From: Psammoneis japonica
Lineage: Eukaryota
NCBI GenBank assembly: GCA_008632985.1
Contig: QPGO01000027.1
Span: 496,001-560,000, forward strand
Length of the DNA: 64,000 nt
Direction of reading: 5' to 3'
The position numbers and the translations under genes are program-made. Positions 27,420 through 61,371 of the stretch are shown here, one piece after another. The notes beneath the pieces were generated by a model, which made no database searches, was not told the DNA's origin, and was given only the letters and a program-made list of their open reading frames with translations. Within the stretch, counting starts at the first letter, position 1. Every line of letters starts with the position of its first letter.

Positions 27420-27539
27420 CTTGTTGTTGTTGAAAGGTGTTGGCTCAGCAAAGAGAAAATTGAAATTGTGAACCAAGAGAGAGAGTGACAAGATGTTTCG
27501 CGTGATCTCAAGAGTCAGCATTTTTGGCAATTTTTTCAT

Positions 27540-37432: not shown

Positions 37433-37589
37433 GAGAGTAAGTACAAAGATCAATGGGACAACAAGGCAACTATGGTCAGGTATCGAATGCTTTTCTGTCG
37501 GCTTACCGCCATTTTTTCTTTTCCTCACTTCCGACTTCATGATTTCATTGTCGGGCGACCATGCTCTGGGAGTGGTAGAACCTCTCTAT

Positions 37590-37814
37590 CGAGTAAATCT
37601 AGCTGCCGAATAGGCTCAGCCACTCACAGTCTTAGTACGATAGCGCGAATACAACCAATAAGATGCTTCTAGGCCTGTTACAACTACGACAGATGCAACA
37701 AGTGAAAAAACCATTCCGTGGTCATCGGCATTTTAGTCCGCACACCAGTCATAGTTTCTCCACAGCACCTCCTAGAGCACACTAGACAGTCTCTGATACA
37801 TCGGATTTCACTCG
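37590..37814 (-). repeat. Copia 3' LTR (225 bp)
   Basis: Direct repeat of 44022-44245; preceded on the minus strand by PPT-like GAGGGGAC. Confidence 0.95.
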
Positions 37815-40800
37815 GTCCCCTCGAAATGTACCTGACTCGTAAGGCACAATTCGATCCAATGCTGCATCAGTAGTCCAACTCAAACAATCTTGACTTATCG
37901 ATCGACGTAAAAACCCTTGCTAGGGAAAAGTCGCCAATCCTCTGTGCATGGTGTAAACCCTCACTAGGGAAGAAACTCACCACCGCTCCACGTGTCCGTC
38001 TCAATGCGTGAACTTGTCTAACAGAAAAATTCCGTCTGATGGACGACATGACCTTTGTGAACAGATCGCAAAGGTTTGTCTCTGTTCCCTCCTTTGCAAT
38101 CCTAACAGTCCCCACAGCAACAGCTTCGCGGTTGCGGTGATGCGCAATGGAGTGATGCTTCTTCTTGAGTGTAGACTCAGGAATGGAGCAATTCTTGCAG
38201 ACGGCCTCATTGTCACAGAAGACATTTGTTGGCCCTTCGATCGGTGCCCCAAACATTCGAAGCTCACGTCGTAGACCCTCTATGAGCTCGATGGCATTCT
38301 TGAGTGCAATGATCTCAGCCCCAAATGTGCTAGCCTCCACGGCATTCTGACGCTTCGAGTGCCGCACGATGGGTGCCCAATCAACAAACATCAAGATGCC
38401 TGCATGGCTGCGACGATCGGCAACATTTCCGGCATGGTTGGCATCCACAAAACAATGTGTCGATGCCACATTACCTCGGGCTGGCGGTGCATTTGTCGGG
38501 ATGGCTTCTCTTGCATCTTGGTGGAAGTCACACCAGCCGCACTTCACGAATCGCGATTCATCGATCTTGGGATGAGCCGGATCAAATGCCACTTGGCGCT
38601 TTGGAACCTGTTTGAGGTGTGCAAAGATGTGCAACACCTGTTCCAGATGACCAATGCGAGGAAGAGCAAGGTGAGCAGACATTGACGAAACCTCCAAATG
38701 GACGTCCACTCCACCGAGTTCCACAGCCCAAACCAGTGCACCAATCAGCTCTTGATGGCAGTGAAGTCCTTCAGCATCCAGTTCGCCAGCAGTGTCTAGC
38801 TCGGGTTTGCATCCACTGCTCAATGGGGTTGTCGCCTTGCTGGGCAGACGTTTCCCCTCCTTGCCAAGCCTGTCCTCTACATTTTGGACAGCGGACTTGC
38901 AGCACTTCTCCGCAGACATTGCCCAACAGGTGGTCCCATCGGCTAAAGTCATCTTGGAAAGCGCATCACCGAGATGAGAATCCGGTTCGGCTACCTTGTC
39001 ACCCTTGAGCTTGAACTTGGACCTGATGCCGTCCATCGTCTTCATGGGTTCGTGACCAATTGACAGCACGTCGTCCACATAAACTGGAACGTGTTCGCAG
39101 CACTCGAATCCATCGGGTTTCACCGCAGGTTGCATCCACACATCCGGATCAGCCTTGCTCGGTTTGCACCCTAGATCATAAAGCGTCTCCGCTGGGAATG
39201 CCCCGAACGCTGCTCCGGAGCTCTTCAATCCGTGTGGAGCCCTGACCACAATCATGATGCAACCTTCATCCTCGCCAAACTCGGAACCTGCCCTGGTCCA
39301 AATCTTCTCCCTGCAAGGGGCAGCAAGGTGGGCGTTCTGGACATCACACGCAAAAGACTTGCAAGTCATTGAGCACAGCAAGCGTCAGTGCAATCCTTGC
39401 CAAATCCCGAGAGATGACAGAGGAGCAAGTGATGTGTGCGGGGGGTTTCAGCAGTGTGGCCTCCAGCCACCATGCGAGCTTTGCGGCGGAAGTTTTCTCC
39501 CAATTTGATGTCAAAAATCACACGGCACTTCACTTCCTGGAAACCAGGCGCCATGTCCTTAAGCTCCCCTTCACACTTGTCAAAAGCAACCCGCACATTC
39601 TTCATCTCCACACAAATGGCGTCCCACCATGGGGTGTTGCCATTTGCGCGATCGATCTGGATCGCCTCCTCGACACTCTTTGGGATCCGTGTGCCAAATT
39701 TGTGTGTTCGTAGCCAATGCTTCGACTTGACCTTCGCAATGGAACGCTTGCAGGTTTTCATGACATGAGGAACCCACCAAGCAAACGCTGCCTCATTCGA
39801 GATCTTGCGCTGAATGGCAAACTCGGCAACTTGGACTGGGAAGCTCTCCTTCACAATCTTCAAGTCGGTCCAAGTCGCACTTCCGTCCTTCCATTGGAAC
39901 AGGAGTTCCCATCCTTTGGTGGTCTTGCGCCTCTTCCGAACGCCTTGCTCGGTCTCAAAGAACTCGGATTCAGGAACGTCCCCATTGGTGCGGCAATCAA
40001 CGATCTCGTCAAATGAGACATGCCGGTTTCCGTCCTCGTCGATCTGAGCAAACACATTCATGGCAATGGAGTCAGCAGAGAGCGCAGCATGGTGCCCATC
40101 AGGGTGCTCTACCTCATGCATCCTTGCACCAAGGATGGGATTGTCATTGGCTGTTCCTGTCGGAATGCCATTGGCGTCTCTCAACCTCTTCGTGACACGA
40201 GCAAACTCAGGACCGTTGTCATCTCTTGGAAGCGCAACTTCCATGTTAAGGTGTCCCCAGTCCACCGCCTCCGGTGAGGCTTCCTCGTCTTTCTCATCGT
40301 CATCGTCATTTGTCACCTCCTCTGAGGACATGACACGATCACACTCATCAAGGAATTCATTGTCACATCCAAGGCAGTCTTTCCAGTCTTCGGGACTGAT
40401 CTTGCGATCCTCGTCATCGGGAAAGTCTTGCTCCTTCAACCGGCACTTGATCTCCTCGTCAAAACTGTCAAACTTTGCCTTTTTCTCTTGAGCAGCGGCT
40501 TCTAAATTGGTGACTCGTTGAACAGAAGTTCTCAAAATGACACTGCCTGTCTGTGTCAAAACGCAACACGACATGAGACTCCCTGTTCTGTGAGATGCAC
40601 CAAGCCACCTGCCGAGCTTCTCGTCCCCTGGACCGGCATTCTCCCTGCACCAGACCCAATCATAAAATCCAAAGTCAAGGTGCTCCAAGACATCCACGGT
40701 CTCTCCGAGAATGTTCTCCAGTGGTGCTCCAGCATCCAAATGATGGGCTCCAAGGAATGTGCGAGACATGGTCTCACATGTCCACATGAATCCGCAGTCC

Positions 40801-43800
40801 CATGGTCGCCGCGGCACTTGCTTCTTGACCATGATGCGGAGCCACTTGCGTCCAACCTCGCGCACAACCCCTTCTGCAGGATTCTGGTTGTGTCGATCGG
40901 GTTTGATGATGTGACAATCCATGCCCTCCTTGCGCACGGTCTTCATGAACTCCGTGCCAGGTTTCATTTGCTCCTTAGATCCATCCATCAGGAGTTTCTC
41001 TGGCACGCCAAATTCCTGGCAAAACATCTTGAGAGCCTCGCCAGCCTTGCTCTTCTTGTCCATGGGATAAATCGCAGCAAAGCATTGCTTGTTTGTAAAG
41101 ATCTGGGCATGTCGATTGCCCTCCAACGAAACCACCTTGCCATCGACCGTGTTGGTTGCCCATTCACCCCGTAACCTGGGCTTCGTGAACATCCGATCGG
41201 CCCGGTGGCGTCGACCCATTGGCATCAATGCTGACCTGATGAGCTTTTGTGCAGTCTTCTTGAGCATGTTTGCTGCTTGCTTGAGTCCTGTGCACCATCG
41301 TTCACTTGAGTCAGCAGCCAACACATCACTGTGTCTCTCCTTGGACATGAATGTCTTCGGGAGTGCTGAGTCTTTGGGTCATTCGCCGATTGTTTCCGTG
41401 GCAGAGATCTGGACTGTTGGCTCCGATTCCACATTGATGGCAGCTGTGAGCCTCGATTGGACTTGATCGACTCCACAAATGAATTGCTCATCGCAACAGT
41501 CCCCGGATTGAGGGTTGCTGAGGCAGGATCGGCTTTGAACTCGTGTGTCAGATTGGTGTGGATCGTCGCAATTGACCGAACTAGCTCCATTTCCTCCTCC
41601 GCAGATCGTCTAGTTCCAACAGATTTGAACTTGACGGTCTGTGGATCCCAAGGTTGTTGGGAGGTCATCTGGATCTTGGGGCATCAGTGCAACTCCTGTT
41701 CTGCAGGAGCATGAGTCACCGCAACGACATTGGTCCCCATGGCTTCAAGCGGCATCATGAAAGATCTGTCCTCTGTGAGGACACACAGTGGTGAATCGGA
41801 GCAGGGGTTGTCCTGAACCTTAGCACCAAAGTGCCGCAGCTGGTTTGGGTTAACCAGCGAGTGCTCCATGGACTCCGGCATCCACAAGCCCTCGTGGAAG
41901 ACCAGAATAAAAGTTGCTCCCGATGTCGGTGACGTCCACGCCGTGGCTGCCGAGACAATTGGGACACACTTGATGGAATCGCATCCCTCGTTAAAAGGCG
42001 ATGCGTCACATTCTCGTCCAGAACAACCTGAGAGGGTAAAGTTTTGACCAAAAACAGTGGTGTCAGCATGCGAATCCATTTCAAGGCATCCATGTTGTGC
42101 CTTTCTCATGTCACGGATGTGAGTGATTCGTGTGGTGTCAGACCGCATTGCCGAGACACGCCGTGTCGAGGCAACGACCTCACAGACGCGTTTGTTGCAG
42201 CCACGTGGATGCTGCTCCTTTGATCGATGCGGCTGTCCCCCGCCCCATTGTGGCAACCACAACAAGAAGTTTGTGATGCAACAAAGCAGGGTCCAGCTTG
42301 GCAGTCATTTGTTCTTTCCTCTGCACTTTTTGCTGCGACCACCGAATGCGTCTCCGGCATTGTCTCCGTCTTTGCCGCCAGCCCTTGATTCATCATTGCC
42401 AGAATCGGCGCTGGCATTAGTGTTCAGGGCGGAGATTTTGAGGTTCGCTTCTTTAAGCTGCGACGACAGCTTCCGATTCTTCTTCTTGAGCGACTTTACG
42501 GATGCAGCACGGCGTTTGGTTGGTTTGGGTTGTTTGGCAACACCTGGACGCACGCGCTCGTCGACAACCTTCTGTTTGTCCTCCTTGCTCAACTGGTGCC
42601 AATTTTTGTGGCATCCAGTGTCAATGGATCCATCCTCATCATAGATGGTTCCACCCTCTTTTCCTCCTCCAGAGGCGACTGCGGCAATCGCACGACGATG
42701 CACAATCGTCTCTGGAAGGGTGGCGACTTTGGCAGCAAGATGATTGGCCGCCGTGGTGAACGTGATGCCTCCTCCAAACTCATTCTGTGCCTTCAAGGTC
42801 TCAACCACTGCTTGCAGTGATTGGTGCTGCGTCTTCTCAAAAAGGATCCGCAATTTCTGGGCCTCCGTTTTCGGTTCGTCGTTCTCCTCAAAAATGTCAA
42901 ACATTTCTTGGAGCTTGTCAACAAACGATTCAAACGGCATGGCGCGCTCACTCTTGCAATGGAGGGTGTTCTCCATGTGCTCGGCTTCAGAGATGCGGCG
43001 GGAGGCACTTCCTTCTCCCTGGCAATGGTCACACAACGCCCTAAAGTCAACTCATCCATTCTGCTCATTCTTGTGGTCTTTCAACCATTGCTCACTGGGT
43101 GTGCCCGTGGTGAGGGACTCAATGAGCAAATGAACCGCACGAGTGTCAGCCTCGAAAGCTGGGCCTTGGAGGGGTGCACATGCAATGCACTTCTGGACAA
43201 AAGTGTTGTGGCCTTGGGGTCTGGGTGCATCGTTTTGACGCATGCAATGCACTGACGGCACGCCAGAGACTCCTGGCACAATGCCAAGCATGTTCGTCAA
43301 GCCGGTGCTCCACTTGACCCAATCCTTTTCGCTCTCTGACATCCCGGGTGACGCCTCTTTACTGAGAGAGTCAGCAGTGGTCTTGGTCAGGGAACGGATC
43401 TCGGCACGACTGAGTGCTGTCTGGAGAGCAGCACGGAAAGTTGCCTGGTCAAGCCCATCCAGAGCAGGGTTCTTGCTCACACGACCAAAGTCCTGCACCC
43501 AATGGATGAGAGCTTTGAGTCGACGACCACGGGCCAAACCAAAATGAATGCGCCCTTCAGCAACCGTCCTCCTGGCGTGTGATGACGCGAGAGAATCGAT
43601 GTCCTCTTCCTTGAGGTCTTCTAAATCGTCAAAAGATGCAAAGTCTGCCATGAGCGAGACTCGTTGAGCTGGATCAACAAATCCAATCCATTCAAGTGCT
43701 GTCTCGATGGGATCCGGAGGAGCAGCCGCCATGGTGGCACCCACACCAGCAGGAAAACAGAGTCATGTGAGAAATCATAAATTAAAAGGATGTCTCGGTC

Positions 43801-44007
43801 TGTGTTGACGACAACACATGGCCATCAGAAGCACGGAGACTGGCCATGTCTCCTCACTGCTTGTGCACTCACTGATGCCAGGCGACGACAATCATCGTGC
43901 ACCCTTCGATCGACCGGCGTTCATCGTCATGACCCTGCCACATTGGTGCGATCGTCTCTTCACAGTTGTCCAATGCTTTTCGTCAAACCAAACCTGAGTT
44001 GATGACT

Positions 44008-44018
44008 TGGCTCTGATG
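44008..44018 (-). other. Primer-binding site core, tRNA-iMet-like
   Basis: Minus strand CATCAGAGCCA, 3 nt inside the 5' LTR, versus canonical TGGTATCAGAGCCA. Confidence 0.65.
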
Positions 44019-44021
44019 GAG

Positions 44022-44245
44022 CGAGTAAATCTAGCTGCCGAGTGGGCTCAGCCACTCACAGTCTTAGCACGACAGCGCGAACACAACCAATGAGATGCTT
44101 CCAGGCCTGTTGCAACTACAACAGATGCAACAAGTGAAAAACCATTCCGTGGTCATTGGCATTTTAGTCTGCACACCAGTCACAGTTTCTCCACAGCACC
44201 TCCTAGAGCACACCAGACAGTCTCTGATGCATCAGATTTCACTCG
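44022..44245 (-). repeat. Copia 5' LTR (224 bp)
   Basis: Direct repeat of 37590-37814 with 15 transitions and one 1-bp indel. Confidence 0.95.
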
Positions 44246-44282
44246 CTGTCGCTCTCTGCTAGCTGGCCAGCTGCTCCACTAG

Positions 44283-44810
44283 CTAGAGAGCTGTCTGCGC
44301 TGCCTGCACTGCACTGCAGCATCTGCCTGGCTGGCAGCCCAAAACGTTTGCAGCACATTCTTCCTTCTCTCTTCTTGTGAAATGGCATGTTTGGAGAACC
44401 CCATTTGTGTCGAACGCCGTTGCACGAGTGAGCCAAACCTCAGTCAGAAAAGCACCAAAAGGCACAAGAAATCGCAACAAGGCAAACAGCACTTGACATC
44501 TCGCTGCTTCCATTGCCCGTGCCCCACCCAGGATCTGCCCCATCATCATCCCTGGAGTGGAAACCAAACCAATCACTGCCATGGAGTTCACCATGGGTGC
44601 CCCAGCCAGCAGCTCACACTGCTTCCCAAATTCTGCTCGCCCCAACAACAACAGCCACCGGCCCATGCCAAGCACAACAAAGAGCTCAACCTCGCTCGTC
44701 TTCTGCTCCAACAGACACCTGCAAGCATCACATTTGGCGACAGTGCAGTGGCATTGATGCAACAACCAAAGAAGCACTCCAGCAGCTGGGACAATGTGGC
44801 AGGAGCACCA
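44283..44810 (-). pseudogene. UPF0014/YbbM(FetB)/STAR2-type ABC permease remnant
   Basis: PMVNSMAVIGLVSTPGMMMGQILGG...AARCQ matches the family motif GLVSLPGMMTGQILGG...AARYQ; frameshifted. Confidence 0.8.
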
Positions 44811-44811
44811 G

Positions 44812-47800
44812 CAAAGCATGTGTTGTCAAGTGGATGAAATCACACTTGTTCACAATTGCACATTGTTGCTCACGTCAATCACGCGACAATCGTGGATGTG
44901 CGCAATGGTCAGATTGGTCACACAGAAAAGATCAGAAGTTTAAAATTGCAAACACAATTGGCAGATGATGTTGAAATACAAGATTTCAATTTCAGTGCAT
45001 CTGGACAATCTGTTGTCACGATTGGATCATCCGAAAGGCCTTTGCTCTCTGCAGGAGCAGCGCAGCAGCTTTGGGCCATTGAGAGCTCCTTAAGAGTGTC
45101 CCAAAATGGCAGCAAAGGATCTGTCTCACAATTTTCCACTTTTCATGATTTGTTCTGCTTTTGTTTGTGCTCATTCTTTGAGCATGGTGCATTGTGCACA
45201 CACACCAGAGAAGGTAAAAACACAAAAATGAAGCTTTTGCCTCATGCAACCAACGGCAAGTCCATTGTCAAGCAGGACAAGATCACACCTCAACCGCTGG
45301 AGTCAATTTCTGAGCCCAAGACTCTCAAATTGAGCCATTGCATGAAGATGGAGCAGTGTTTTTATCCCAGAAACAAGAAGAGCGGCGCATGCATGATCAA
45401 CATCGAGCACTGCAACAAGCAGGGAGCTCCAAAATGCATCGCATTTATGAAGACTGCACAAAACTTTTGATCAGACAGAACATCAAGGAGCAAGCTGATG
45501 AGTTCCACAAGATGCTTGTGTTGTTGCAGGGAGACACTTTTCAAGTTTTGGAGACAAGGCAATGAACATTGACAAAAAAGCCGAAAGAGCCTTCAAAAAG
45601 TGCCTGCATTGTCTCTCAAGCCATGCACTCCCAAAAAATGCACTTCAGAATCAGAAATGACATCTGCGTCATGATCTCAAAAAGCCAGACTTGACAAAGA
45701 TCTGAGAACTTGCAACCTGGGCTCAGGAGGTCAATGAAGATTTCAAGCTCTGTTCTCCCTTCAAGTCTGACCAGAATCTGGACAAAGATGAGCTCAAGGA
45801 CATTGTCCACAACCTTGCACCTTGCAAGTGGTGTCACCAGTCAACGCCACAAGGTTTTGAAATTCTGAATCATGTGTTTGATGAGTTGGTTGAGTTTTTG
45901 GAACATCTGGAGGTTGCAGGAGACACACTCAACAAATCCATTTCAAGGATGACAGCAAAGGCAAGCCTGGTTCCAAAACCAAAGGTGGCTCCAGAAATTG
46001 TTCCAAAAATGGTCATCTCTCTGGCACAAAATAGACTGAGTCCAATGAGCACCAGTGCAGTTGTTTTGCAAGAAAAACACTCACATCATGGATCAGTGCT
46101 GGGTCATCAAACATCTGGCAAAAGAATGCCAAGACAATGCTGAAAATGCAACTCAAAGCAACAGTGCACCAATGGCAATTGCATGTGGCAGTCTCGCAGC
46201 AACATTAAAATGCCACTCCAAAAGGAAATTGAATGCTGTGATCAAACAGGTGGTTGACAATTCTCTCAAGGCAAGTTCCAATGTAAAGAATTTGAAGCGC
46301 AAGAGCAAAGAGAATGTGACTCTGACACCCTCAGCAAGGAAAACTGTCAATTTGAGAAAATCATGCACAGCGACTCTGAAGAATGACTGGTGCCACTCGA
46401 GGAGTCTTGTGCACTGCTGGATGTTGGGAAGCCCAAAAAGGGCCAAAGCAATTCATGCCAGTCCAGCAGTCATTGTTTGTGTGAACACCTGCTCCTTGGA
46501 CAAAGCAAAAAACAAGCCTCTGTGCATTCTCCTCAACAGTGGAACATTGTCTGCCACAATTTTGTGCAATTTGTTCATGCAGAAACTGAGATCAAAACAA
46601 TCGTCTTCATGACTGACAGCGAGCACACTAAAATCCAGTTCACATCACCTGAATTGATTGAGTCAAAATGACACATGTTGACAACACCCCTCTTCTTCTT
46701 TGAGTTGTTGTGATGTGATCATGGGATGCAACTTGATGTCCAGTCATGGGATCAGACCAGACTTTGCAATCAAAGAAATCAAATGAGAGGACGCAACTGC
46801 ACCCATGAAGAGTGTTGATGCACTCTTCAATGCTGTTGTTTTCAAGTTGATTGCGGATCACATTGAGGCCTCTCATGCTGTGATTGGCCTCAATGACAGG
46901 GTCAGTTGGATCCTTGACTCAGATTGTCATTCTCCTGACCTTGATGATGTGACTGCAGCAGCAACTCATCCAACTCCAGAGGAGCAGAAACAGCCAAACT
47001 TTCTCCTGGAAAGATTTGAGAACCTTTTTGATGGTTCTCTGGGCAAATGGATTGGGAGAAACCTGTGGATCTCAAGTTGAAATTGGGCACAAATCCGTGT
47101 CTGGCAAAGCCATTTCCTGTGCCACAAGAATTGGATGCAACTGCTCAAAAGGAAGTTGAAAGACCATGCAAGTTGAAAGTCACAAGAAAAACATTCTGAG
47201 TGGGCAGCTCCAACCTTCACTCAGCCCAAGAAAAATGGTGGAGTTTGGTTTTTGTCCAACTTCTGTGAGCTTGACAAATGGTCAGAAGCTGGATGGAGGG
47301 TTTTGTGTGTGCAACCTCACTGGATTTGAATGTGGGACATTGCCACATTGAATTGACACCACATGCACATCGCTTGTGCACACTCATGATGCCACGGGGC
47401 AAATGCAAGCACTCACTGCAGACTCCCTGTGGGAATCTCTGGAGCTCCAGACATTTTTCAGGAGCATGTGAGCAAGCTTGTGGCAGGCTTGGAGTTTGTC
47501 AGAATTCATGCTGATGACATGCAATGCCTGACAAAAGGTGACTTCAAAGATCATCTCAGAAAGCCTGAGATGATGCTCGTGTGGCTCCAACAAGCCGGGT
47601 TAAAGGTCAGTTTTTGCCAAGCCAGAAGTGGGCTGTCTGGGCTTTCACATTGCGCAAAATGGTGTCAGACCAATGCCTGAGAAAGTGGAGACAATCCCAG
47701 CAACTGCAATGCCTGCAACTTGCCAGGAACTGCAATGCTGCATTGTGGTGTGATCAGCTGTTGTTGAGACATGTGGCCTTGAGGATCATCCAAGGTGAAG

Positions 47801-50800
47801 TGGCAACGGATCAAAAAGGAACAAAAAGCCTTCAAAAACATGAAGCAAATTGTGTCAAAAGACATGTCATTGTCACATCCGACCCTTTGAGACATGCGCT
47901 GATGTGAGTGATTCTCAATTGGGGGCAGTCATTGCACAGAACAACTGGCCTGTTGCTTTCTGCAGTCATCAAATGGAGTGCAGACATGCCACACTGCAAC
48001 TGAAAAAGACTTCTGTCCACAGTGGAAACACTCAAAAAATTCCAGAATGTGCTGTTTGGCCAACAGATTGACAAACACGGATCGCAAAAATCTCACTCAT
48101 GAGAACTTCACAACAGACAGAGTCATGCGTTGGTGACTGACAACAGAAGAATGCAGCCCCGAATTGGCTCATCTCAAGGGCAAGGCAAACATCATCGCAG
48201 ATGCAGTCAGCTGACTTGCTGTGAAGAAAATTGAGCCCATGGAAAAATCTCAGCAACGAAGATCCAGCTGCAAAGGTTGCACTCAAATCCTGTGACAATG
48301 TCTTTCTGTTGACACACAAAGCTCTTGATGCTGAACAAAAATGGGACAAAGACATTCTCTCCAAATTGTTGGATGCAATGTGTCATGCAAAGACTTTTCT
48401 TGGAGGTGAGTGAGACCAGTTGCTCACATGCAACAAGCACAAATTTGTTGCACCAAAGACATTGCAAAGAAAGTCGGCAATGCAATCAGCCGACTTGCTG
48501 TGAAACAAACTGGGACATTGCCGAAAATGACTGAGTTGGTCACCTCGCACATTTGTGCCACATTGAAGATTGCGAGCACAAACGGAACAGTGTGATGCAC
48601 ATGGAGCCATTTGAGAAACTTTTTCCAATGTTGCTTGCAATGTCCAAACAATGTCTTTCAGACATGTTGCTCATTTCCCACTCTTAAACCAAGAATGCTC
48701 AATCTCAAACTGCACAGTTTGAGATTTGCAAAAATGCCAAACCAGCCAGTTTAAGATTTGTCACAATCTCAAACTGTTTTGTCACAATCTGAAATCATCT
48801 CTAAATCTGAAGCAAGGCAATTGTGAGCTGACAAAGCATTTGAAAGGAAACACACATGTGAAATGCATTGAGAGAGCAGAGTCCATTGTTCGTCAACAAG
48901 ACAATTTGAAATTGTCCATTGGCAAAACATGATGTGCCTCTTTTTAAAGAGGGCAGTGGCTGTTTTTCAGTGACGACTTCTCACAAGTCATGACAAGTGT
49001 TTCAAAAACAATGAAAGCAAAAAGCACATCAGGGCAGTTTCTGACTTCATCAACAGGTTTGGCAAGACCCCAATGGAGTCTTGTCAGTGCCACAGGTGTT
49101 TTGTGCATTCAAAAACCCCAACACAGCACTGTCTTTCTCATTGCTGTTGATGGGGCAAACACACTCATGCAAGCAAGCCCAAGCACCCTGCTTTCAACAA
49201 GAATGCAAAATGTCCCTGTCACAAATTCAAGCAAGTGGTGTTGTCATGCAAACTCAGGATGTCAATTTTTACAAACAACCTTGCAAAACAAGCCAGGTTG
49301 TGCGCCATTGACAACTGACAAGAAGGGCTGCATTGTGGCCACTGCGTTGTTTCTGTTGGATTGTGGCTCACATGATTGTGAGTGCTGCAAAGACTCTGCA
49401 ACAGCACTTTCTGAAAAACTTTCACAGCCAAGGTCTGCGCATCAACAAAGCAGTTGTTTGCACATGACGACTCTTTCAATGGAAGGGATTGGGAACCAGC
49501 GCATGTTGCATGGGGCCAGCTCTTTATGCGGTCAAAGGGACCTGTCACAAATGGCAAAGATCCCATTGCCGTTTGTCATCTCGATGGCTTTGTCAATCTT
49601 GTTAAAGTGTGTTGTCAAAATCTTAAACTGTGTCATCGAAAATCGCACTGTGTTGTCTAAATCTTAAACTGTGTCATGAAAAATTGCAAAATCTTGAAGA
49701 AAACGTCAAAATCTTAAACTGTTTTGTCCAAATTTAAACTGTGCAGTTTAAGATTTGTCTGAATCTTAAACCACACAGTTTGAGATTCGCAAATCTTAAA
49801 CTGGAACTGTCCACTCTGAAACTGCGAGTTGTCTTGTAGAAGGGACAAACTGTGAATGGCCAAAGTGCTCTTTTGTGGCATTCGCACTTGACGACATTTT
49901 TGGCCAAAAGACTTTTTCATTTGACAATTTTTTTTAACATGGTCACATGACACATCATGAAATGACTGTTTCAGGTCATTTCCAGGATGTTCCAGAACCT
50001 GTGGAAAACCTCAGCAGCTCTGAAGAGTTGGCAGCAAAGGTGACCCCCAAATCCTGCAACAATGTCTTTCCATTGACATGCAAAGTTCTGACGCAACATG
50101 TTGTCCAAAGACTTTTTGTGGAGGTGAGCAAGATCAAATGCTCACGTGTCACAAGGAAAAAATTGCCACACCAAAGATGCTGCAAAAAATGGTGACAGAT
50201 TGGTGTCATGTGCACCTTCTGCATCCTGGCACAAATTGAGTTGAAGAGACAATCTCACAACACTTGTGGTGGTCACCTTGTGTGATGACATGCAAAAACA
50301 CATGTCAAAATGTGGCGCATGCCAGACATTCAAGAAGAAACAAAAGAAGGAAATGTGGACATTTGCCACCTGAGTGTGCAGAGTCAGTGCCACGGGAAGT
50401 GGAGACCTTGTTGAACCATGCAAGATGCATCGCAAGGGCAAAAAGAAACCCCAGTCCTGAAATGTTCAACAATGGCAGATCCAGCAACAGGATGGTTTGA
50501 AGTGGTGGAAACTCCAATGAGGGGTCAACAACCATTGCTGGATTGTCAAAAGGAGCATGGTCAAGCAGACATCCTTGGCCACATCATTGATTGCTTGTGA
50601 TTGTGGAAGTGAGTTCATCGGACATCAATTTAGAACAATGCAGCCCAAGATGATTGTGGCATCAAGTGCAGCCCCACAACTGCACAAAATCCTCAAGCAA
50701 ATGCCATGGTTGAGCACATGCATCAAGTGCTGGTTTGCATGACACACACACTTTTGATTTACAAAATGCACCCCTGGATGCTCAGAACCCATTTGAGGGA

Positions 50801-51533
50801 ATGCTGTCAGCAGTGCAGCCTTTGCAGTGCATTTGACATGTTCAACCGAAACATGATTTTCAGTGTGTCCAACACGTTGCTGACTGGAAGTTTGTCCAGA
50901 AATGCAAACAAAATGTTGCAAATAAAAATGACGCAAGAGAGAATGCATGGCACACTCTTTGCACATGCGGCGTGGGAGAAAAGATCCCACTCAAAAACAA
51001 TTCTCAAAAATTAGAACAGCCCTGTGCTGGGCCTTGCATCACAACAACTGCACACACCAATGGCGCAGTGCAGATCAAAAGTGGTGATGTTGTTGACACC
51101 ACCAACATCCTTTGAATGAATCCATTTGATGAATGACTCCAATGTGCAATTGGGGAGGTGAGTGCAGCATGCTTTGTCAAAGAGATGAAATTGCGCACAT
51201 TCACAATTGCACATTGTTGCACATGTCAATCATGTGACAATCATGGATGCATGCAATGGTCAGATTGATCACACAGAATTGATCAGAAGTCTAAAATTGC
51301 AATGCAATTGGTGAACAATGTTGACACATGAGATGTCAATGCAATTGCACCCGAACAATCTGTTGTCATGATTAGATCATCTGAAAGGCCATTGCTCTGC
51401 AGGAGCAGCACAACAGCTTTGGGCCATTGAGAGCTCCTTGGGAGAATCCCAAAACTGCAGCACAGAATCTGGTCTCACAATTTTTCACTTTTCATGATTT
51501 GTTCCACTTTTGTTTGCACTGGTCCTTTGAGCA
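44812..51533 (+). mobile_element. Heavily decayed, composite Ty3/Gypsy LTR retrotransposon
   Basis: Diverged LTRs ~44812-45184 and ~51163-51533; TGG after the 5' LTR; PPT tggggaggtgag at 51151. SEWAAPTF..PKKNG, GISGAPDIFQE, IHADD (YxDD), DVSDSQLGAVI, KGKANIIADAVS, integrase remnants. Confidence 0.85.
48680..49830. mobile_element. Insertion bounded by AATCTTAAACTG motif/palindrome clusters
   Basis: Motif clusters at ~48680-48810 and ~49617-49825 in both orientations; interrupts Gypsy pol. Confidence 0.55.
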
Positions 51534-54500
51534 CAGTGCAAGTGAGGTTGAGGCCAAACAATTTCACAGAGCACCAAAGTTGGCACACAAGTGCAGCTCT
51601 TGTCAAAAGTGCAGCCAACATGCCCAAGAGCCTGGCCTTGAAAAACTCACCCAAGGCTGTCAAGAGATGCTGATGGCTTGAGATTGATTGACTCTGGACA
51701 ATTTAAGATGGCAGGATTCTTTGTGCAGGTGCTGTTGATTTCTTTTGACTTGCTCCACATGGGGTTTGTTCTCACCCACACCATCATTGACAACTTGCCA
51801 CTCATTGCCAGGTCATCCATGCAGCAGATCAAAGAGAAAGGAAAGCAGTCCATGGCTTTGCACCATTGCTTGCTTTCAAGCTTGGCTCCATCAGTGCTCA
51901 ACTTTCTTGCAATGAAAAGCAAGACACTTGGAAGATTGGCAGTGGGTGAAGCAAAAGCAAAAGTTGAGTTCTCTGTGGCTTTGGAAGCAACATGCAACAT
52001 CAGACATGCCTCCATTGTGACTTGCCTTTTTCATTGACAGCATGCCAAAAACATGCCATTGAAAACAACAAGTGTGGTGCCTGATGTTCTGGCAGACATT
52101 GGCTTTGTTGGGTGACGAGCCATTGTGCCATGATGAGTCTGGTGTGATTTCTGCACAGAGGCCACAAACAAGCCAGGTCTGTGGCTGCAGGGGGGGGGGG
52201 GGGGCATTTCACACAGCAGCATGCATGCTTAGATGCCAATGTGGGCAATGGCAACGCAGGGTGTTGGAGCTTCACAGCTTGCTGACCAGTGCGCGTTTGG
52301 TCTTGCCATCACTGAACTCTCTGTGTGGCTTGCAAACACATCACCATTTTGCTGTCAACTGGGCGCAGAAGCTAAAAAGTGTGAGCACAAGACCTGCAAC
52401 TCAACCCAAGCTGCAAACACAAACTTGCCACATTGTCCACAATTGTCAGTGCATCTTTCCACTGCAACTTTGCCTCTCCTGCAAAAACCACCTCTGGCCC
52501 CAATGTTCCAACACACTTCTCATGAGCCATCAATTGATTGGCCTTGTGCAAATCAAGAAGCATGGAAGGATGACATTTGGAGTCCATGCCACCCAATGCC
52601 ACATCAACTGTTCTGCCAGTTTCCATGGTCCGCATCATCCAACTCCAACAAAAAATGAACATTGTCAGGGCAATTCATTCTCACATGCCTGACCCAACCA
52701 CATTTCCAGCATGCAATGCGCTCCTTCTCTTGCTCTGCATGAAACTTGTGAGGCAGGTTTCCTGCCATGCAGGTGCCCTCCAACACCTGTGGTGCCTCCT
52801 TGGCTGACTTGGGACAAATGTCAACCCCCGGTGTGAACTGCTGATGTGGGTCTTTGAAGACTTGCCAATGTTCCTTGGTGCCTTCCATTGGCATCACCAA
52901 CAGCAACTTGTTCCTTTCTTCATTCTGGGTGTGTCATCAGCATCCTTGCCAAACCCATCTTCCTTTCTTGGTGATTTCTTCTGGGTTGACCCTGCCATGG
53001 GACATTTGTGCTGCTTCAACCATGCTCACAAACCAACTGCAACAGGAGTCTTGAAGTGACAAATGAGCCCCAATTGCTTCCAAGCCTTGACCACCTGAAC
53101 ATGTGGGGGTTTGTCTTCTCATTTGCATCAAACAAGATCAACTTGAGAACATCCAGCAGTGCTGCCACATCCCACTCCTTTGCAACTCTTGAAAACTCAG
53201 TCACTTCTTCAAGTTTGTGACAAAAACCTTTGCTTTCTGCATCTTGCAGATTGCACTCTGTTTCGCACTTGTCCCAGATTGACTTCTCCTTCTCTCACAA
53301 AGCAACATTGCTGTTGACTGCTGTCACCGTGTCAACTGGTGCAGATTCTAAAAAGTGAGCACAAGACCTGAAACTCAATCCAAGGCTGCAAAGACACAAA
53401 CACACCACATTGTTCACAATCATCAATGCATCTTTCCACTGCAACTTTGTCTGTCTGTCCTGTGAAAACCACCTCCAACCCTGATGTTCCAACAGCGGGT
53501 GAAAGAGTGGAAGATGGACATGGATGGGTGGGGACAGACTGGATTGATTGGAGCAACAAGGTGAGTGCACCAGTTGAGATTTTTTTTGCAACACTTCAAC
53601 AGCTGCACACATCTGCAGCACCTGTGTGTGGGGTTGTTCTGCAAAGCTTTTAGACCACAAACTGCGGGGTGGGAAGAAGCTTCCCAAAGTGCAGGACAGC
53701 CCACCCAACAAGGAGCTGTCATGGACTTCAGCACCCACATGGCCACACCCTCTCTTCAACCATGTTGGTCTCATCTGAACATTCAACAATTGACTTCAAC
53801 GGCCCTCAATGACAGGTGGTTCACATGCCAACCAGTGCTTTCAAGTGTCCTCAAAAGGCAATCTGACAGCTTTGCATTCTTTCAAGATGGCTTGCTGCTT
53901 TCTGCCAGGGACCAGGAGACCCCAAGCTGCTTGACACTTTGTCTCTTAGCTGCAAGAAGCATTTGAGCAGCCCCCTTTCAAGGCCCACACACTGCTGTTT
54001 TCTGGCCCTGTGAGATGGTTGGCTGATGCCCAAAGAGCACTCCACACCACCCATCTTGGGCCGCCACACTTCTCCATTGCTTGGAGGATCTAAAATCTGC
54101 AACTTCAGAGCCTCCAGAGAAAGTGGCAGATGATGAACTCAGCAAGAGCAGCAGCAACTTGCCACTTGTTGCTTGCTGTGCAGCACGACTTGTCCTTCTT
54201 GCAACAACTTGTGCTTTGACAGCCAAGCACAAGGGGCAGAGCCTGGCCAGCTCTGAGCAGCTGCTGCAGCAATGAATGTCATTTCATCAGTCAATGCTTT
54301 TTCACCTGCATGAGCAAGAGTGCCACTTCATTCAATCTTTGTTGCCTGCTCTGACTGTCATGACATTGCACCAAGTTTGATTTTCCTTTCCTCCAAAATT
54401 TTGCAATCTGTGGCTCCACCCCCTCACTGCATTTTGATTTTCCTTTCCTCCAAAATTTTGCAATCTGTGGCTCCACCCCCTCACTGCATTTTCTGCATTA

Positions 54501-57500
54501 GATGATGCTGTTTTTAGATGCACATGTCCAATCTCTTCACTTGCTTCATCATGCTTGTTTTAGTCACACTGTTTGGTTGCACCGCCACTCCATTCTCTGG
54601 TCATTTTTGCAATGATGCAGCCAGATTCTTTTGTTTGCCCTCAGTGCCAACATGCCAGATTTGCTCAGTCTTGCTGCCATCACTGTGATGCAGCAACTGG
54701 CCCAGTGAAGGCTTTCTGTTGTCTTTGTTGTGTGGACAAGGTGTTTTGACTCTGAAAGCCAGGTGCAGTGTGTCACCTTTCCCGCCACTGCACTGGCTTC
54801 ACTTCAATTCCATCCATCACAGAGTGCAGTCATCATCAAGAGCTTTTGCCTTGCTGTTGTCCCCAGCTTCTTTTTGCAATGTTGCCCAGCACCTCCAGAA
54901 GTGTGCCCCCTGCCATGACTTGGAGGACCTTTCATGCCGAGGATCAAGTTCAATGCTTCATGGTGCACTGCTGTTGGGCACACCAGTTTCTTGTCAGCAT
55001 CACAAAACCAATGTTGTCATGGGGAGAGACAGCCAAGAGGTTTTTTTGGTTAAAAAGAAGTCCCACAGTGAATGCAGAACCAAGCTCACCACTGTGTGAG
55101 CAAGTGCCTCCACCAGAAATGCAGCCAAGTTGATGTTCCTCAGTGTGAGCCATGTGGCATTTTCTGGCACAACAAAAGGGACAGGCTTGTCTGCAGTTGT
55201 GGTGGGGCATGACAGGGAAACAAACAATGCAGCACCAGCACTGTCAAAATGGTTTGGCACAGGCACATTGAACAAAAGCAATGTGAGAAGAAAAACAAAA
55301 CACTGCCAATGCTTTGTGGGTGGACATTGAGCCAAAGTGATCATTGAAAATTGGGTCTGCTTTCTGAGTGACAGAAATGTCAGCTGCAAAGATGGCACAT
55401 GTGTCACTTTTGTTGAGCATCACATCAAAATGCAAAACTGGTTGTCAAGAAAAAATGATTGACACAGCACAACTTGGAATGAAGCTGGACATTGTCCCAG
55501 GTGGGCAAGGTGCCAGTGTCACAGAATGTGATGAAAAAGGCACTCAGCTGTGAAATTTTGATCCTGGGTTTGAAAAAATGAACACACACACACCCGGGAG
55601 CACTCATCACTTGTTGCAGCACCATGTTGAAACAGAGAAAATGCAACAAAATGTGCTCAAACAGGAGGCACCTGCAAATGTTTTACAAAATCAAAAATGG
55701 GAGCATGCCAATGACAACAAACAAAGACACTTCATTTCACCACATCACTCCTGGTGTCACAAACAAGAGAAGACAAGGCAAAAAATGCAGAAACAAGATG
55801 TGGTGTGGCAGGTCAAAGAAATGGAAGGAACAGTGTTGACAGGTGTGCCAGAACAAGATGGTGTCAGCACAATGTCAAGCAGCACGTGATGACACAGCAT
55901 GACACACACTGCAATGACAGAGAAACTGGCATGTTTGCTGCTTCTGTTGTGATTGTGGATTGTGGCTGCTTTGGGCCAAATTGCACTGCCACAAGCCCTG
56001 CACTGGTGGATTGTTGGCAGTGCAAACAAACAAACAAACAAACAAACATGGAGAGATGAGCCATTTCTGGCTGGGGCAGGCCTCCCCCCAGCAGCAGGAG
56101 CACTGACAACATGCTCAAATGTTGGCTGACAGTGTCATCCAAGGTCTTTGCCATGTCAACGCACTTAAAAACTTTGTGACAAGACTGTTGACAAAGCTGA
56201 GAAATTGGAGAAGGATGATTGCAGCACAGGAAACTTGCAGTGAAGATGTGAAGAACACAAAGCATGCAGCTCAAGGCAGGGGCAAAGCAGCAAAGCAGAG
56301 CCAAGGCTGGAGCAAAAAAGAAGGAGCACAGAAGTTCAACAAGCTGTGTGTGTGTGGATCAAGCAAGACAGAGAGAGCAATGAGGGCTTCAGTCTGTGGC
56401 TCAAGGAATGGAGGTGACAAAGGCAAGCTTGTGAAAGGAAGAAAAGAAGAAACAAAAGAGGAGCAAGGCAAGGAAGGAGAGAGAGAGGAAGGGTGGGCCA
56501 AGAGCCAGTGGGGGGCAATCTGCCACTGCAGCTGGTGGCTGCAGGAGTGGCAGCTGAGGCAACAAACCAAACGAGTGTTCAAGCAAACATTCAAGAGTTG
56601 GCTGCAATCTGGATCATGGTGAAAACACCAAGCAAGAAATGGGAATTTGGTTTTGTGTCATGGATGGATGGCAGGTTAAAAGGGTGCTTTTGAAGCAGAC
56701 AGGACAAACAAAAAATGCAGAAGGACACTCCAGGTCACATGGCTGCCTCAAATGCAAGTGAGAGCTGCCAAAGAAACAAGAAAGCACAGTTGTGACACAA
56801 GGTGAGCTTTCAGATTTTAAATCCAGGAACATGGGACAAAAGGCAAGAGTGCCCAATGCTGAAAGTCAGGTGCAATTTAGAGTCAGGGATGCCATGAACC
56901 TGGCCAGTTTTGAGCTGAAAAGAAAGCCGAAACCCAACTTGTCAAGTGACACTGTCCTGAGATTTCAGCTGGGAAATTGCCAGATCACATTGATGGCCGG
57001 CGGTCAGAGCCAGAATGCTGGCATCCCAGATGCGCTGCCAAGGAGCTGGACATTAATTTGCTGAACCCCCACAAAGGCCAAAGTGTCTGGTTGTTGTGTT
57101 GTTGCAAGTCACTTCAAGCTTGCAAGAGCCCCTCTTCCATGTTCTTTTCACCGGATGAGGCACAAAGCTTCACACAGAGAAACATTGAACAAGCTTTCTC
57201 ATTGTGTGCTGCTGGAGGGAAAAAGCACCACCACAAATTGTGCTTGAATCAGCAAAGGACTTTTTTGCACACCCCCACGTCGTTCACTCCTCTTGCAATG
57301 CCAACTTGTTGGCAAACAACCCAGCTTGAGAGGAAGCCACAGGCAGGCCTGGCCACACAGCCTGCAGTGACAGCTGCAAGGAATGAACCAAAAGGAGGCA
57401 TTGCAATTGTGCTGTGAGCAAAACCAGTGCATCTGGCAGTGCATTGACACACAAAAATCCACATGGTGTGTCGTGCTCCCCTCTCTTTTTCCTCTCTTCA

Positions 57501-57560
57501 TCATCCAGCCACAAAACATTGCAAAATTTTGCTTGCAGGACTTTGATTTGCTCCTTCATG
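51534..57560. other. Mosaic of unidentifiable hypermutated repeats
   Basis: TA and CG nearly absent. ~150-bp diverged direct repeat at ~52352-52495 and ~53329-53477; GWS..EG..KFN.L-like remnant near 56310. Confidence 0.7.
54376..54492 (+). repeat. Perfect 57-bp tandem duplication
   Basis: tttgattttcctttcctccaaaattttgcaatctgtggctccaccccctcactgcat at 54376 and 54433. Confidence 0.95.
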
Positions 57561-57836
57561 TGATCTACTTCTACATGAGAAACTTCTTGGCTCTACAAAA
57601 CACGAATTCCCTCCATCTTTGGAGGTGCCCAGACCACTGGCCAGCTAGAGACTGGCAGACAAGTGATGAATGCGTCCAACGCTCCAAGTAAAAAATTGTG
57701 CGATCATCCCCTCCTCTTTTTTCTCTTTTATTTATATTCAAACACGAATACACTGCCTGAAAAATTGCACCACAACACGATCAGTGATGGATGCAGGATA
57801 CAGGTGGGGTATAAGACGATAAGACAACAGACAACC

Positions 57837-59360
57837 ATGACCACCTCACCCTCGTCTCCTTTGTTCGATATTCGTTGTGGTTTGTTCTCATGGTTTGTAT
57901 GGATTGCGGTCTTTTCGACTCTTACCAATCAGGTTGTTATTGTGGAAGCGGCCTCAGGGGATTTGGGTGATTTTTGTCTCACCTCGTCGTTGCCTTTTTC
58001 GTGTAATGGCCGTTTTTGTTCACCCGGTGCTTGCTGTTGCAGCCGTAATCTCCAGTGCGTCTTGGGGGCTTCGATAAGTCCAGGGAATGCTGAATGTGCC
58101 GGAGATGTGGAGCAACCGTGTGATTTGGATGGTCTGGGTCAAAACTGTACCGGAGGGAGTTGTCAGCCAACGCTTGGAGAAAATTCACCCTGTTGTTGCG
58201 GCAATGCTGGCGGGGGCGGGGGACGTTGTTATCCCAAGTCACTTCCAGAAAGTGGGCAAGATGATGGAGGGGCATGTGCCGATAGAGGTGGACTGGATGG
58301 TCCCTGCAATTCGGAAAATACTTCGGATAAATGTTCAGCGGCGGCCTTTTGTGACGATTCAAGCGAAAGCTGCTGCTGTGATGTCCAGTCGAGTACCAGC
58401 GATGAAGGCGTTTGTCGGGCTCAACCACCCCAAGACACCAATGATCGAGGTAGTAGATGTTATGAGCCAGGAACGCTTGGGGGGGCTTGTGGTGAAGAAT
58501 TTGGAAATTGCAATGTAGACCCAGGATGCGACGTAGCTGGCGGTGCTGGCGGAGTGTGTTGTTGCGATGTTGTCACCAACACGTGCCGAGCTGGAATTCC
58601 AGCTCCATCTGAAGCTCAGGATGGAGGTTTTTGCCAAGCTCGACGTGATGTTGATGGAATTTGCTCTCCAAGTAGGCGTTGCAATCGAGGAGCCTGCAAC
58701 AATGTGGAGTGCTGTTGCGACATTCGCTCCTTTGATAATTCTACGCTTGGAAGGTGTGTTTTGGGTCTGTCCAATCCCATAACGGCGGCGCGAGGAGGAG
58801 CTTGTCCCCTGCCGGGAAATCAAGGCGCGCCCTGTGACGGACATGAGCTCCTGTGCCTCAATGGGAGTTGCGATCCCAGCCAGAGTGATCCCGACGCGAC
58901 GGAATGCTGCTGTGACAATGACACCAAGACTTGCGTTCCTGGCATTGCCTCGGGACTGGGTGGTAACGTACCGGTGGGAGGCTTTTGTCCGTTGCCGCTC
59001 AATGGTACCTTGGGTTTGCCCTGCGCTGATGGAACATGCCAGACGGCCAGCTGCAATCCCACTGTGGCGGGAGGTGTGGAATGCTGCTGTAACAGCGCGG
59101 GCGTTTGTGAGGCTGGTTCAGCAGCCAATTTAGCCGGGACGACGTGCTCTCCGGCCGTGGGGGATTTGGGTGGAGACTGTTCCACGGTGAACTGCACGAC
59201 GGGTCTTTGTGGCTTGGTGGACTGCTGTTGCAACACGGCCAATGTCACATGTGTACAAGGCCCATCGGACCAGAACGGCCAGTGTGTGTCCAAAGATGGT
59301 TGCCACAAGTCGAGCTCGAAGAGCAAGACTGCCAAGAGCAAAGGTTCAAAAGGGCATTAG
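57837..59360 (+). CDS. Secreted Cys/Gly-rich repeat protein with Lys/Ser tail
   Basis: Hydrophobic N-terminus, eight CCC-containing modules, C-terminal KSSSKSKTAKSKGSKG. Confidence 0.8.
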   Translation: MTTSPSSPLFDIRCGLFSWFVWIAVFSTLTNQVVIVEAASGDLGDFCLTSSLPFSCNGRFCSPGACCCSRNLQCVLGASISPGNAECAGDVEQPCDLDGLGQNCTGGSCQPTLGENSPCCCGNAGGGGGRCYPKSLPESGQDDGGACADRGGLDGPCNSENTSDKCSAAAFCDDSSESCCCDVQSSTSDEGVCRAQPPQDTNDRGSRCYEPGTLGGACGEEFGNCNVDPGCDVAGGAGGVCCCDVVTNTCRAGIPAPSEAQDGGFCQARRDVDGICSPSRRCNRGACNNVECCCDIRSFDNSTLGRCVLGLSNPITAARGGACPLPGNQGAPCDGHELLCLNGSCDPSQSDPDATECCCDNDTKTCVPGIASGLGGNVPVGGFCPLPLNGTLGLPCADGTCQTASCNPTVAGGVECCCNSAGVCEAGSAANLAGTTCSPAVGDLGGDCSTVNCTTGLCGLVDCCCNTANVTCVQGPSDQNGQCVSKDGCHKSSSKSKTAKSKGSKGH

Positions 59361-61000: not shown

Positions 61001-61371
61001 ATGTTGAATATGATGTGATGAGCCAATGATTTATACTAGTGTGATGTGAGAACTGAGACAGTTCAATAGCAACGCGACACTCGACGCCATTTTGACAGGA
61101 GACAGCATCCAGCATGCGGGATTCAGGATTCAGGGGTTCGCGCGAACGTTGAAGGTCGCGCAGGAGGCCAACGTCATGCCCGTGACGTGGTTGTGACATC
61201 ATGAGATAGATGATTGCGCGAACGAACGCGCGCAGCGGTTCCATGCTTCACTCTTTCCCGCCATCAGCCATCAACGGTTCATAATGGCATCAGTGTTACT
61301 TGTACTCTCTTGCGAGTAACACCAACAGGAAAACCGACACACTGTTTCCGTGTATGAGATTCAAGCAGAGA

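Follow-up and report, generated by a model that had tools for sequence, protein, structure and literature searches.

What removes the dinucleotides TpA and CpG from one block of a diatom's nuclear genome is the question raised by a 64,000-nucleotide stretch of Psammoneis japonica DNA (assembly GCA_008632985.1, contig QPGO01000027.1, positions 496,001 to 560,000 of the forward strand), hereafter the window, whose positions are counted from its first letter. Between 37,970 and ~57,560 of the window, TpA falls to 5-12% and CpG to 17-75% of the frequency predicted from base composition. This block appears to comprise two retrotransposons, a young Copia and an older, Gypsy-like one, together with a short repeat, a fragment of a host gene and 4 kb of unique DNA. 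From the two long terminal repeats (LTRs) of the Copia element we find that the changes arose in place, after insertion, on double-stranded DNA, and their extent appears to follow position more closely than homology.

Loss of TA and CG in place

In the ordinary parts of the window the observed/expected ratio (o/e) is ~0.55 for TA and ~1.0 for CG. Per kilobase, these ratios are 0.09-0.20 and 0.67-0.90 across 38-44 kb, and 0.01-0.15 and 0.04-0.34 across 45-57 kb, where CA/TG reaches 1.65-2.11. Taking expected dinucleotide counts from the densities of the window's normal parts, the Copia element (37970-44245) holds 46 TA against 237 expected and 323 CG against 368, and the older part of the block (44246-57560) holds 54 TA against 503 and 122 CG against 780. 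An earlier description of this DNA made from its letters (the sequence-only reading) had TA rare through the Copia element and both dinucleotides nearly gone from 44.3 to 57.5 kb, and these counts agree with it on both points. The stretch 53466-57499 retains 13 TA against 152 expected and 20 CG against 236. A second, smaller island at ~27.4-29.5 kb has the same signature, with 3 TA against 79 expected, 25 CG against 123, and CA+TG at 477 against 301. Deficit and excess balance throughout: the combined TA and CG deficit is 449 + 658 = 1107 in the older part, with a CA+TG excess of 1118, and the corresponding values are 191 + 45 = 236 and 237 in Copia, 355 and 338 in 53466-57499, and 174 and 176 in the second island. 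The pattern of composition is real.

The LTR pair of the Copia element provides the most direct record of the changes. The LTRs differ at 16 of 225 aligned positions, 15 of the differences being transitions, and when recoded as purines and pyrimidines (the code used for the LTR and self-comparisons of the window) they are identical at 224 of 225. At ten sites the left, outer LTR has TA where the right, inner LTR has CA or TG, at four sites CG on the left is matched by CA or TG on the right, and the reverse occurs at none. The outer LTR, which lies beside a gene labelled GFA-like, has kept its TpAs, as had been noted (16 TA on the left, 6 on the right). Since the two LTRs were identical at insertion and now differ at TA and CG, the changes postdate insertion and were made in place on the DNA itself, in both strands. 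The candidate target-site copies flanking the element, CTAT and CTGT, differ from each other by one TA>TG; the chance of at least three matches in four is ~0.05. A 4-bp target-site duplication has been reported for a diatom Copia element (PMC2806351).

To place the composition of the element among its relatives, we compared it with 79 related Copia loci from metagenomes, a sample biased to intact, abundant copies. In these, TA o/e was 0.40-0.94 and CG o/e 0.38-1.30, and none of 1404 one-kb windows had a TA o/e below 0.31. Viral contigs scanned for relatives yielded none. The protein tells the same story. When the Copia element was aligned with ten homologues it differed at 173 of 608 conserved columns, and 41 of these differences are explained by a single TA>CA/TG step (22 CA, 19 TG) and a further 8 by a single CG>CA/TG step. 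At 21 columns with a conserved Tyr, the window has His in 9, Cys in 5, Tyr in 3, Phe in 3 and Ser in 1. The gag-pol frame contains three in-frame stops and at least one frameshift. Judged from these comparisons, the poverty in TA is a loss and not an ancestral trait.

The spectrum of the changes is narrow. Of 12 changes at A:T pairs in the Copia LTR, 11 are A>G or T>C, and 10 of those 11 transitions are at TpA. Neither the AA nor the AG class has changed (1.13 and 0.96, compared with 1.07 and 0.97 in relatives). The two strands are affected alike (CA 550 and TG 530 in Copia, 1589 and 1411 in the older part), and the changes are not grouped into runs on one strand (z = +0.5 and +2.9).

The surviving TA sites are strongly biased with respect to their flanks. 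RTAY (R, purine; Y, pyrimidine), which makes up 34% of TA sites at baseline, accounts for 0 of 46 survivors in Copia and 1 of 54 in the older part, while YTAR, at 18% of the baseline, accounts for 52% and 78%, respectively (chi-square P = 2e-10 and 2e-28), and for all three survivors in the second island. Twenty-two of the 54 survivors in the older part are TTAA and 17 are TTAG or CTAA. One of the 8 TA in the unmutated segment 37815-37969 is RTAY (GTAC). Expressed relative to relatives, survival in Copia and in the older part is 0 and 0.005 for RTAY, 0.16 and 0.04 for sites with one favourable flank, and 0.45 and 0.375 for YTAR. As YTAR sites have also been thinned, the flank rule is a matter of rate and not absolute. 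At sites with one favourable flank, the changed base pair lay beside that flank in 8 cases and away from it in 9 (3 versus 2 by eye in the LTR), and these counts suggest that the context is recognised on the duplex. A motif of three bases on a single strand (RTA or TAY) is ruled out, either base pair being changed equally. Context effects on CG survivors are weak.

The Gypsy-like element is much older than Copia, as indicated by the transversions between LTRs (21 of 398 positions in the former, 1 of 225 in the latter), a class of change that the hypermutation does not produce. The Gypsy LTRs show 79 nucleotide differences in 398, of which 58 are transitions, and are 94.1% identical in purine/pyrimidine code. 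At 12 sites one LTR has CA and the other TG, other double-transition dinucleotide pairs occurring once or twice each, which points to independent hits on one ancestral TA or CG. About a quarter of CG has been lost in Copia and ~85% in the older part, the same order as the transversion ages. Since TA has come close to its floor in the young and the old element alike, CG alone tracks age; accordingly, the proposal that the mutation load follows residence time holds for CG, and a simple clock is not supported for TA. In the Copia LTR, 10 of 16 TA have changed, compared with one transversion in 225 bp, which gives an indirect ratio of rates. Within this young element TA has been lost several times faster than CG, and two processes fit better than one.

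Contigs of one DNA sample (X1-X3), possibly the assembly's own, were aligned to the window at a likeness of at least 80%. Where the window and X1 differ outside a stretch matched by a paralogue (described below), 15 of 27 listed differences belong to the TA/CG/CA/TG class, the 27 being a selected subset of 2052 places in which two adjacent pairs are counted as one event each. Two of them, at 43528-9 and 54678-9, have CA in one sequence and TG in the other. These differences hint that the hypermutation is recent or ongoing.

Edges, copy number and position

The right edge of the block is abrupt. There are 4 TA and 9 CG in 56560-57559, as against 31 TA and 46 CG in 57560-58559; TA last occurs inside the block at 57054 and reappears at 57566, 57572 and 57594. 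Composition thus switches between 57472 and 57566, with the next gene's ATG ~280 bp further downstream, in line with the sequence-only reading, which had normal composition returning within ~100 bp at ~57560. The same reading had described a gradient on the left, over ~37.9-38.5 kb. Counted in 190-bp steps from 37590, TA runs 14, 10 and then 2, 4, 1, 0, 2, 3, 2, 0, 1, so that the left side is mostly a step, between 37965 and 38019 (~37,970), 155 bp inside Copia and ~430-540 bp upstream of the left gene's ATG, which was placed by eye. What is left of the gradient is a shoulder of 7 TA in 37970-38499, where 3.2 are expected at the interior rate (Poisson P = 0.043), and the per-kb values show no gradient of CG or TA loss across Copia away from the older part. 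The left edge of the second island lies 0-80 bp upstream of the ATG of an epimerase gene. Three of the four sides of the two blocks therefore end within a few hundred bp upstream of the start of a flanking gene.

The segment that has been spared at the left consists of the Copia 3' LTR and the adjoining 155 bp. It is situated directly upstream of the left gene, whose start is 50-160 bp from the LTR and whose orientation it shares, and it points towards the gene start. From this site and orientation the segment could serve as, or sit in, a promoter, and we suggest that it may be the promoter of the left gene or part of it.

The copy number of the mutated sequences was assessed from the depth of the contigs, and 'single-copy' refers to depth at a likeness of at least 80% in that one sample. 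Summed contig depth is 1600-3200 over Copia, 700-2700 over most of the Gypsy-like element and 1350-2350 over 52.2-53.5 kb, where a third, short element lies. The Copia LTR family is itself multi-copy (~1900, compared with ~60 for single-copy DNA). Depths of ~58-70 are found at 44342-45021 (69.8), 48349-49969, 51271-52410 and 53466-57499. In these single-copy stretches, and in a fragment of a UPF0014-family gene, depletion equals or exceeds that of the repeats, while the multi-copy left LTR is untouched. Sparing of multi-copy DNA alongside mutation of single-copy DNA indicates that position outweighs homology. On the evidence of these alignments, homology is not sufficient for mutation nor, apparently, necessary. 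The claim that the load does not follow homology alone is supported by this result, the LTR twins having met opposite fates (14 of 14 TA/CG-class differences in one direction) and single-copy stretches being mutated.

The 4 kb at 53466-57499 are matched by contigs of depth 58 with 4 differences in 940 nt, and with 12 differences and 8 gaps in 3037 nt. No Pfam family fits a gene among its open reading frames (ORFs) of at least 70 aa. In purine/pyrimidine self-comparison, the second island and 53.5-57.5 kb match no other part of the window.

Elsewhere in the window, at 21291-23480, an A-rich coding region carries a tandem duplication of ~1 kb, the copies of which are 78% identical; their 174 differences are split about equally between transitions and transversions (85 of 174). 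TA and CG are normal in it, which indicates that an old linked repeat has been spared by the process.

Known systems and alternative explanations

Hypermutation of TpA in DNA has been reported once before, in a 2026 preprint on one rhizarian alga. In Bigelowiella natans, mutation-accumulation lines revealed two integrated viral regions that mutate at ~1000x background; nearly every change is A>G/T>C, each of them lies at TpA, and one of the regions is single-copy and transcriptionally silent (Mettrop et al., 10.64898/2026.01.13.699255). According to the text of the preprint, the genome contains 124 clusters of TpA-poor, CpA+TpG-rich windows, reverse-transcriptase and DDE domains are over-represented in its TpA-depleted coding sequences, and the authors propose an ADAT2-like adenine deaminase. 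In both cases A>G/T>C changes occur nearly alone, at TpA, giving TpG or CpA, in place and on both strands, and the long-term footprint is TpA depletion with CpA+TpG enrichment. As far as base changes and composition go, the TA component in the window matches this very recently described kind of hypermutation. The present host, in contrast, is a stramenopile, and the targets are LTR retrotransposons with unique and host-derived DNA beside them; the depletion comes close to saturation (o/e 0.05-0.12, compared with 0.45 in the nucleocytoplasmic large DNA virus region of B. natans); and CpG decays to TpG/CpA, whereas the B. natans process is described as having no GC>AT component. CpG decay is probably a process separate from TA hypermutation. 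The main text of the preprint makes no mention of flank or trinucleotide context, of edges close to gene starts, of diatoms or of CpG, and we found no description in the literature of TpA hypermutation in diatoms or on retrotransposons. The window thus adds a diatom host, retrotransposon and unique-DNA targets, near-saturation, the RTAY/YTAR rule, the asymmetry of an LTR pair, edges near three gene starts and an accompanying CpG decay.

The CG component resembles the decay of methylated transposons in animals and plants, since it is a CG>TG/CA change confined to transposon DNA that rises with age; such decay leaves the faster TA>CA/TG component unexplained. Diatom transposons carry CpG methylation (PMC2806351, PMC9998398).

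On balance we favour, as the somewhat likelier account, a rewriting of the transposon island in place by two transition processes that act on double-stranded DNA and whose extent is set by position. The first, fast process would be specific for TpA, converting A:T to G:C and so TA to CA or TG with equal chance, and would remove RTAY completely, sites with one favourable flank largely and YTAR least. By analogy with the proposal made for B. natans, this step could be an enzymatic deamination of adenine. The second, slower process would be the decay of CpG to TpG/CpA, most simply by deamination of methylated cytosine, and would in that case depend on 5-methylcytosine (5mC). Both would act on anything inside the block, whether repeated or unique. 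The ending of three of four sides just upstream of gene starts suggests that the extent is fixed by position, most likely by silent as opposed to promoter chromatin. The LTR pair, the single-copy stretches and the edges all bear on what guides the process, a question posed by the preprint, and position looks weightier than homology or viral origin.

A broader proposal, which we put forward tentatively and with less confidence than the account just given, is that diatoms and chlorarachniophytes share an old defence in which an enzyme that reads the duplex, with a preference for RTAY and hitting either strand, is guided by chromatin rather than homology and converts the adenine of TpA in silent regions. 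Any insert into a silent block would then be erased, and active promoters would act as the fence. Hypermutation at saturation in a diatom points to a defence that is widespread and may be ancient, and diatoms dominate primary production in the sea. With the RTAY/YTAR rule, candidate deaminases can be judged by a definite specificity. There are deaminase families specific to stramenopiles, a deaminase-SAM-Tudor clade among them (PMC3239186), and diatoms have a DNA methyltransferase, DNMT4, with no known function (PMC9998398); as enzymes of the process we regard these as leads only. If the proposal were true, a natural A-to-G DNA editor guided by position would do the job that is done in fungi by repeat-induced point mutation (RIP), and such an enzyme would be of interest to base editing.

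Several observations weigh against the favoured account of rewriting by two processes set by position. The suggestion that the edges are chromatin edges is drawn from the edges themselves, and selection on promoters could sharpen them. The left step coincides with the end of the pol frame (~38005, by eye), a structural landmark of the element that a chromatin edge would not predict. YTAR sites are thinner than baseline, CG decay is without counterpart in the B. natans report, and the window itself names no enzyme. As regards copy number, two old copies mutated independently would differ by ~10% through the process alone and might drop below 80% likeness, and the depth sample is possibly the one from which the window was assembled.

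The alternative that survives best, although we consider it unlikely, is a homology trigger like that of RIP, in which repeats recognised by pairing are mutated, mutation leaks into unique DNA and selection sharpens the edges. RIP does leak beyond repeats, most of the block is multi-copy (summed depth 700-3200, compared with ~60), and the unique parts could be old repeats now past 80% likeness. Like RIP, the process in the window has hypermutated transposons in place by transitions, destroying their frames, with a dinucleotide preference and a strong compositional footprint, and DNMT4 of diatoms is related to the RIP factor RID (PMC9998398). However, RIP changes C to T, turning CpA into TpA and so creating TpA, whereas TpA is destroyed here; the main change, A:T>G:C at TpA, is not made by RIP, and only the CG part is C>T. 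Nor does a homology trigger agree with the sparing of one LTR when its mutated twin is the same multi-copy sequence, with single-copy depth over the most depleted 4 kb, with the lack of same-strand runs, or with the single-copy target described for B. natans. Selection is also a poor means of sharpening the left edge, since with independent single hits it cannot protect 24 TA and 18 CG in 380 unmutated bases.

If gene conversion or recombination with an unmutated sister had restored the left LTR and the next ~155 bp, the asymmetry of the LTRs would say nothing about position. A step inside the element near the end of pol is what such an event might leave, and there are many sister copies that could have been donors. 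We nevertheless hold it to be improbable. Just 2 of the 16 LTR differences lie outside the TA/CG class, so that the donor would need to have been identical with the ancestor of this very copy, and the target-site copies match except for one TA>TG, contrary to what is expected of a recombinant between elements. Nor would such an event account for the sharpness of the three remaining edges or for the mutation of unique DNA.

At least as improbable is an artefact of long-read basecalling, in which CG carrying 5mC and TA carrying some other modification were read wrongly in silent chromatin, so that the apparent mutations would trace an epigenetic domain. Each of the two dinucleotides is palindromic, as methylation motifs are, and the sole run that contains the stretch is possibly from the assembly's own sample. 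Against this, contigs of k-mer depth ~58 and up to 12 kb in length agree with the depleted unique DNA, a match that noisy reads would hardly yield; the older an element is by its transversions, the greater is its CG loss; and in B. natans real TpA>CpA/TpG mutations were called from Illumina data.

We give still less credence to the possibility that the TA changes are collateral damage of repair, whereby G:T mismatches from deamination of 5mC would be processed by non-canonical mismatch repair and an error-prone polymerase such as DNA polymerase eta (Pol eta), which would miscopy T at WA motifs (W, A or T). In the literature on somatic hypermutation, Pol eta has a hotspot at WA with A>G changes. 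Such a mechanism would tie both losses to a single methylated block, and TA could then disappear faster than CG. The unchanged AA and AG classes argue against a WA-type polymerase signature, AA being not depleted and AG not enriched, and with AA untouched the WA idea itself is ruled out. In addition, transversions at A:T are nearly absent (1 of 12 A:T changes in the LTR), and the TA process of B. natans is described without GC>AT changes.

Least credible is editing before integration, by ADAR on RNA or APOBEC on complementary DNA, or selection against UpA and CpG in the RNA of the element: deaminase-hypermutated retroelement copies, with clustered deamination-type transitions, are known in animals (PMC4866542) and ADAR prefers a 5' U (10.64898/2026.01.13.699255), but such editing affects one strand and leaves both LTRs alike, whereas here the two LTRs of a single copy are no longer alike, nor are the duplicated host bases beside them, CA and TG are balanced and DNA outside the elements is affected, so that editing of RNA or complementary DNA is ruled out by the LTR differences and the strand balance, and the destruction of conserved residues shows that selection on element RNA is not the cause.

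Elements of the block and flanking genes

The features of the window are collected in Table 1.

Table 1. Positions of the elements, genes and edges discussed in the text
Feature	Position	Strand	Remarks
UDP-glucuronate 4-epimerase gene	26205-27551	minus	Named relatives exclusively diatoms, identity at most 84%
Second, smaller hypermutated island	27400-29500		Between the epimerase gene 5' end and the next gene
Cys-rich 'GFA-like' gene, first exon	37196-37585	minus	ORF; candidate ATGs ~37432 or ~37540 (by eye)
Candidate target-site duplication, left copy	37586-37589		CTAT
Copia 3' LTR (outer, left), unmutated	37590-37814	minus	16 TA
Copia 3' non-coding end, unmutated	37815-37969	minus	Purine tract beside LTR; 8 TA in 155 bp
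Copia interior (diatom CoDi-like)	37970-44021	minus	TA-depleted: TA o/e 0.12, CG 0.75
Copia 5' LTR (inner, right), mutated	44022-44245	minus	6 TA
Candidate target-site duplication, right copy	44246-44249		CTGT
UPF0014-family membrane-protein gene fragment	44286-44825	minus	C-terminal half only; PF03649, E = 6.2e-15
Gypsy-like element, left LTR	44800-45191	plus	Pairs with 51151-51540
Gypsy-like interior, heavily decayed	45192-51150	plus	Weak matches to RVT_1 and RT_RNaseH_2
Gypsy-like element, right LTR	51151-51540	plus	
Third, short multi-copy element	52340-53494		175-bp direct repeats 52340-52513 and 53317-53494
Single-copy (by depth), unannotatable DNA	53466-57499		Most depleted part of the block
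Right edge of block	57473-57565		Last inside CG 57472, first outside TA 57566; contains CT-rich tract
Cys-rich repetitive protein gene	57837-59360	plus	ORF; TA and CG normal

The Copia label rests on homologues. A search with the protein returned 517 relatives, the best of them 58-60% identical with E values down to 1e-258 and carrying PF07727, and the named relatives are from Fragilaria. The translations have integrase-like sequence preceding the reverse transcriptase (RT) motif YVDD, and this, together with the LTR pair and the candidate target-site duplication, agrees with the Ty1/copia type, in which the order is gag-protease-integrase-RT with an RVT_2-type RT. Pfam, in contrast, is silent on the mutated frames: neither the long ORFs nor all 150 ORFs of at least 70 aa in 37.4-57.8 kb gave a transposon family above cut-offs. 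Hypermutated copies thus escape Pfam-based transposon annotation, and they can be aligned and dated in purine/pyrimidine code.

The name Gypsy is less secure, being supported by the LTR pair and by two matches under the curated cut-offs, RVT_1 at 47390-47677 (E = 1.9e-5) and RT_RNaseH_2 at 47844-48068 (E = 0.008); no integrase was found by Pfam in ORFs of at least 70 aa. The element includes a copy-specific stretch of 1.8 kb (~48.2-50.0 kb), and other copies skip 48216-49995. The depth of this stretch is that of single-copy DNA, direct repeats lie on either side of it (48251-48471 and 50015-50189), and short repeats with TTAA cores provide most of the surviving TAs of that kilobase. In the short element further to the right, contigs skip 979-981 bp between the direct repeats, as expected if its other copies are solo forms.

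The UPF0014 fragment covers only residues ~137-300 of its homologues (tblastn, 36 of 528 relatives), and the N-terminal half was not found anywhere in the window by tblastn with the 36 homologues, so that the idea of a gene split by the Gypsy-like element was not supported. Where 19 TA would be expected the fragment has 0, and its conserved columns carry the changes Tyr>His, Tyr>Cys and Thr>Met. A diverged paralogue of its core is present elsewhere in the sample, in the X2/X1 contigs, with 86% identity over 112 bp (44488-44599) and flanks of normal TA and CG. This paralogue is probably the functional UPF0014 gene and the copy in the window a dead fragment.

The second island, 2.1 kb long and with sharp edges, contains no recognisable protein domain. 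It has internal tandem repeats at 28436-28559 and 28578-28703, and at 27606-27731 and 28039-28167. CT-rich tracts at 27541-27581 and 57475-57515, which are alike in purine/pyrimidine code, stand at the edges of both islands. They are on opposite strands, in the orientation of the adjacent genes and 120-360 bp upstream of the flanking ATGs, and they may be core-promoter elements that mark the boundary.

No Pfam family matched the protein encoded at 57837-59360 to the right of the block, which is long, Cys-rich, Gly/Asp-rich and repetitive, with recurring CCC and CCCD motifs. The label given to the GFA-like gene at the left edge depends on a match to PF04828 that is under the cut-off (E = 0.0057). 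Weak matches to the GFA domain, both under the cut-off, occur in two separate genes on the minus strand, this one and another at 60380-61030 (E = 0.0011), and the family may have several diverged members in the genome.

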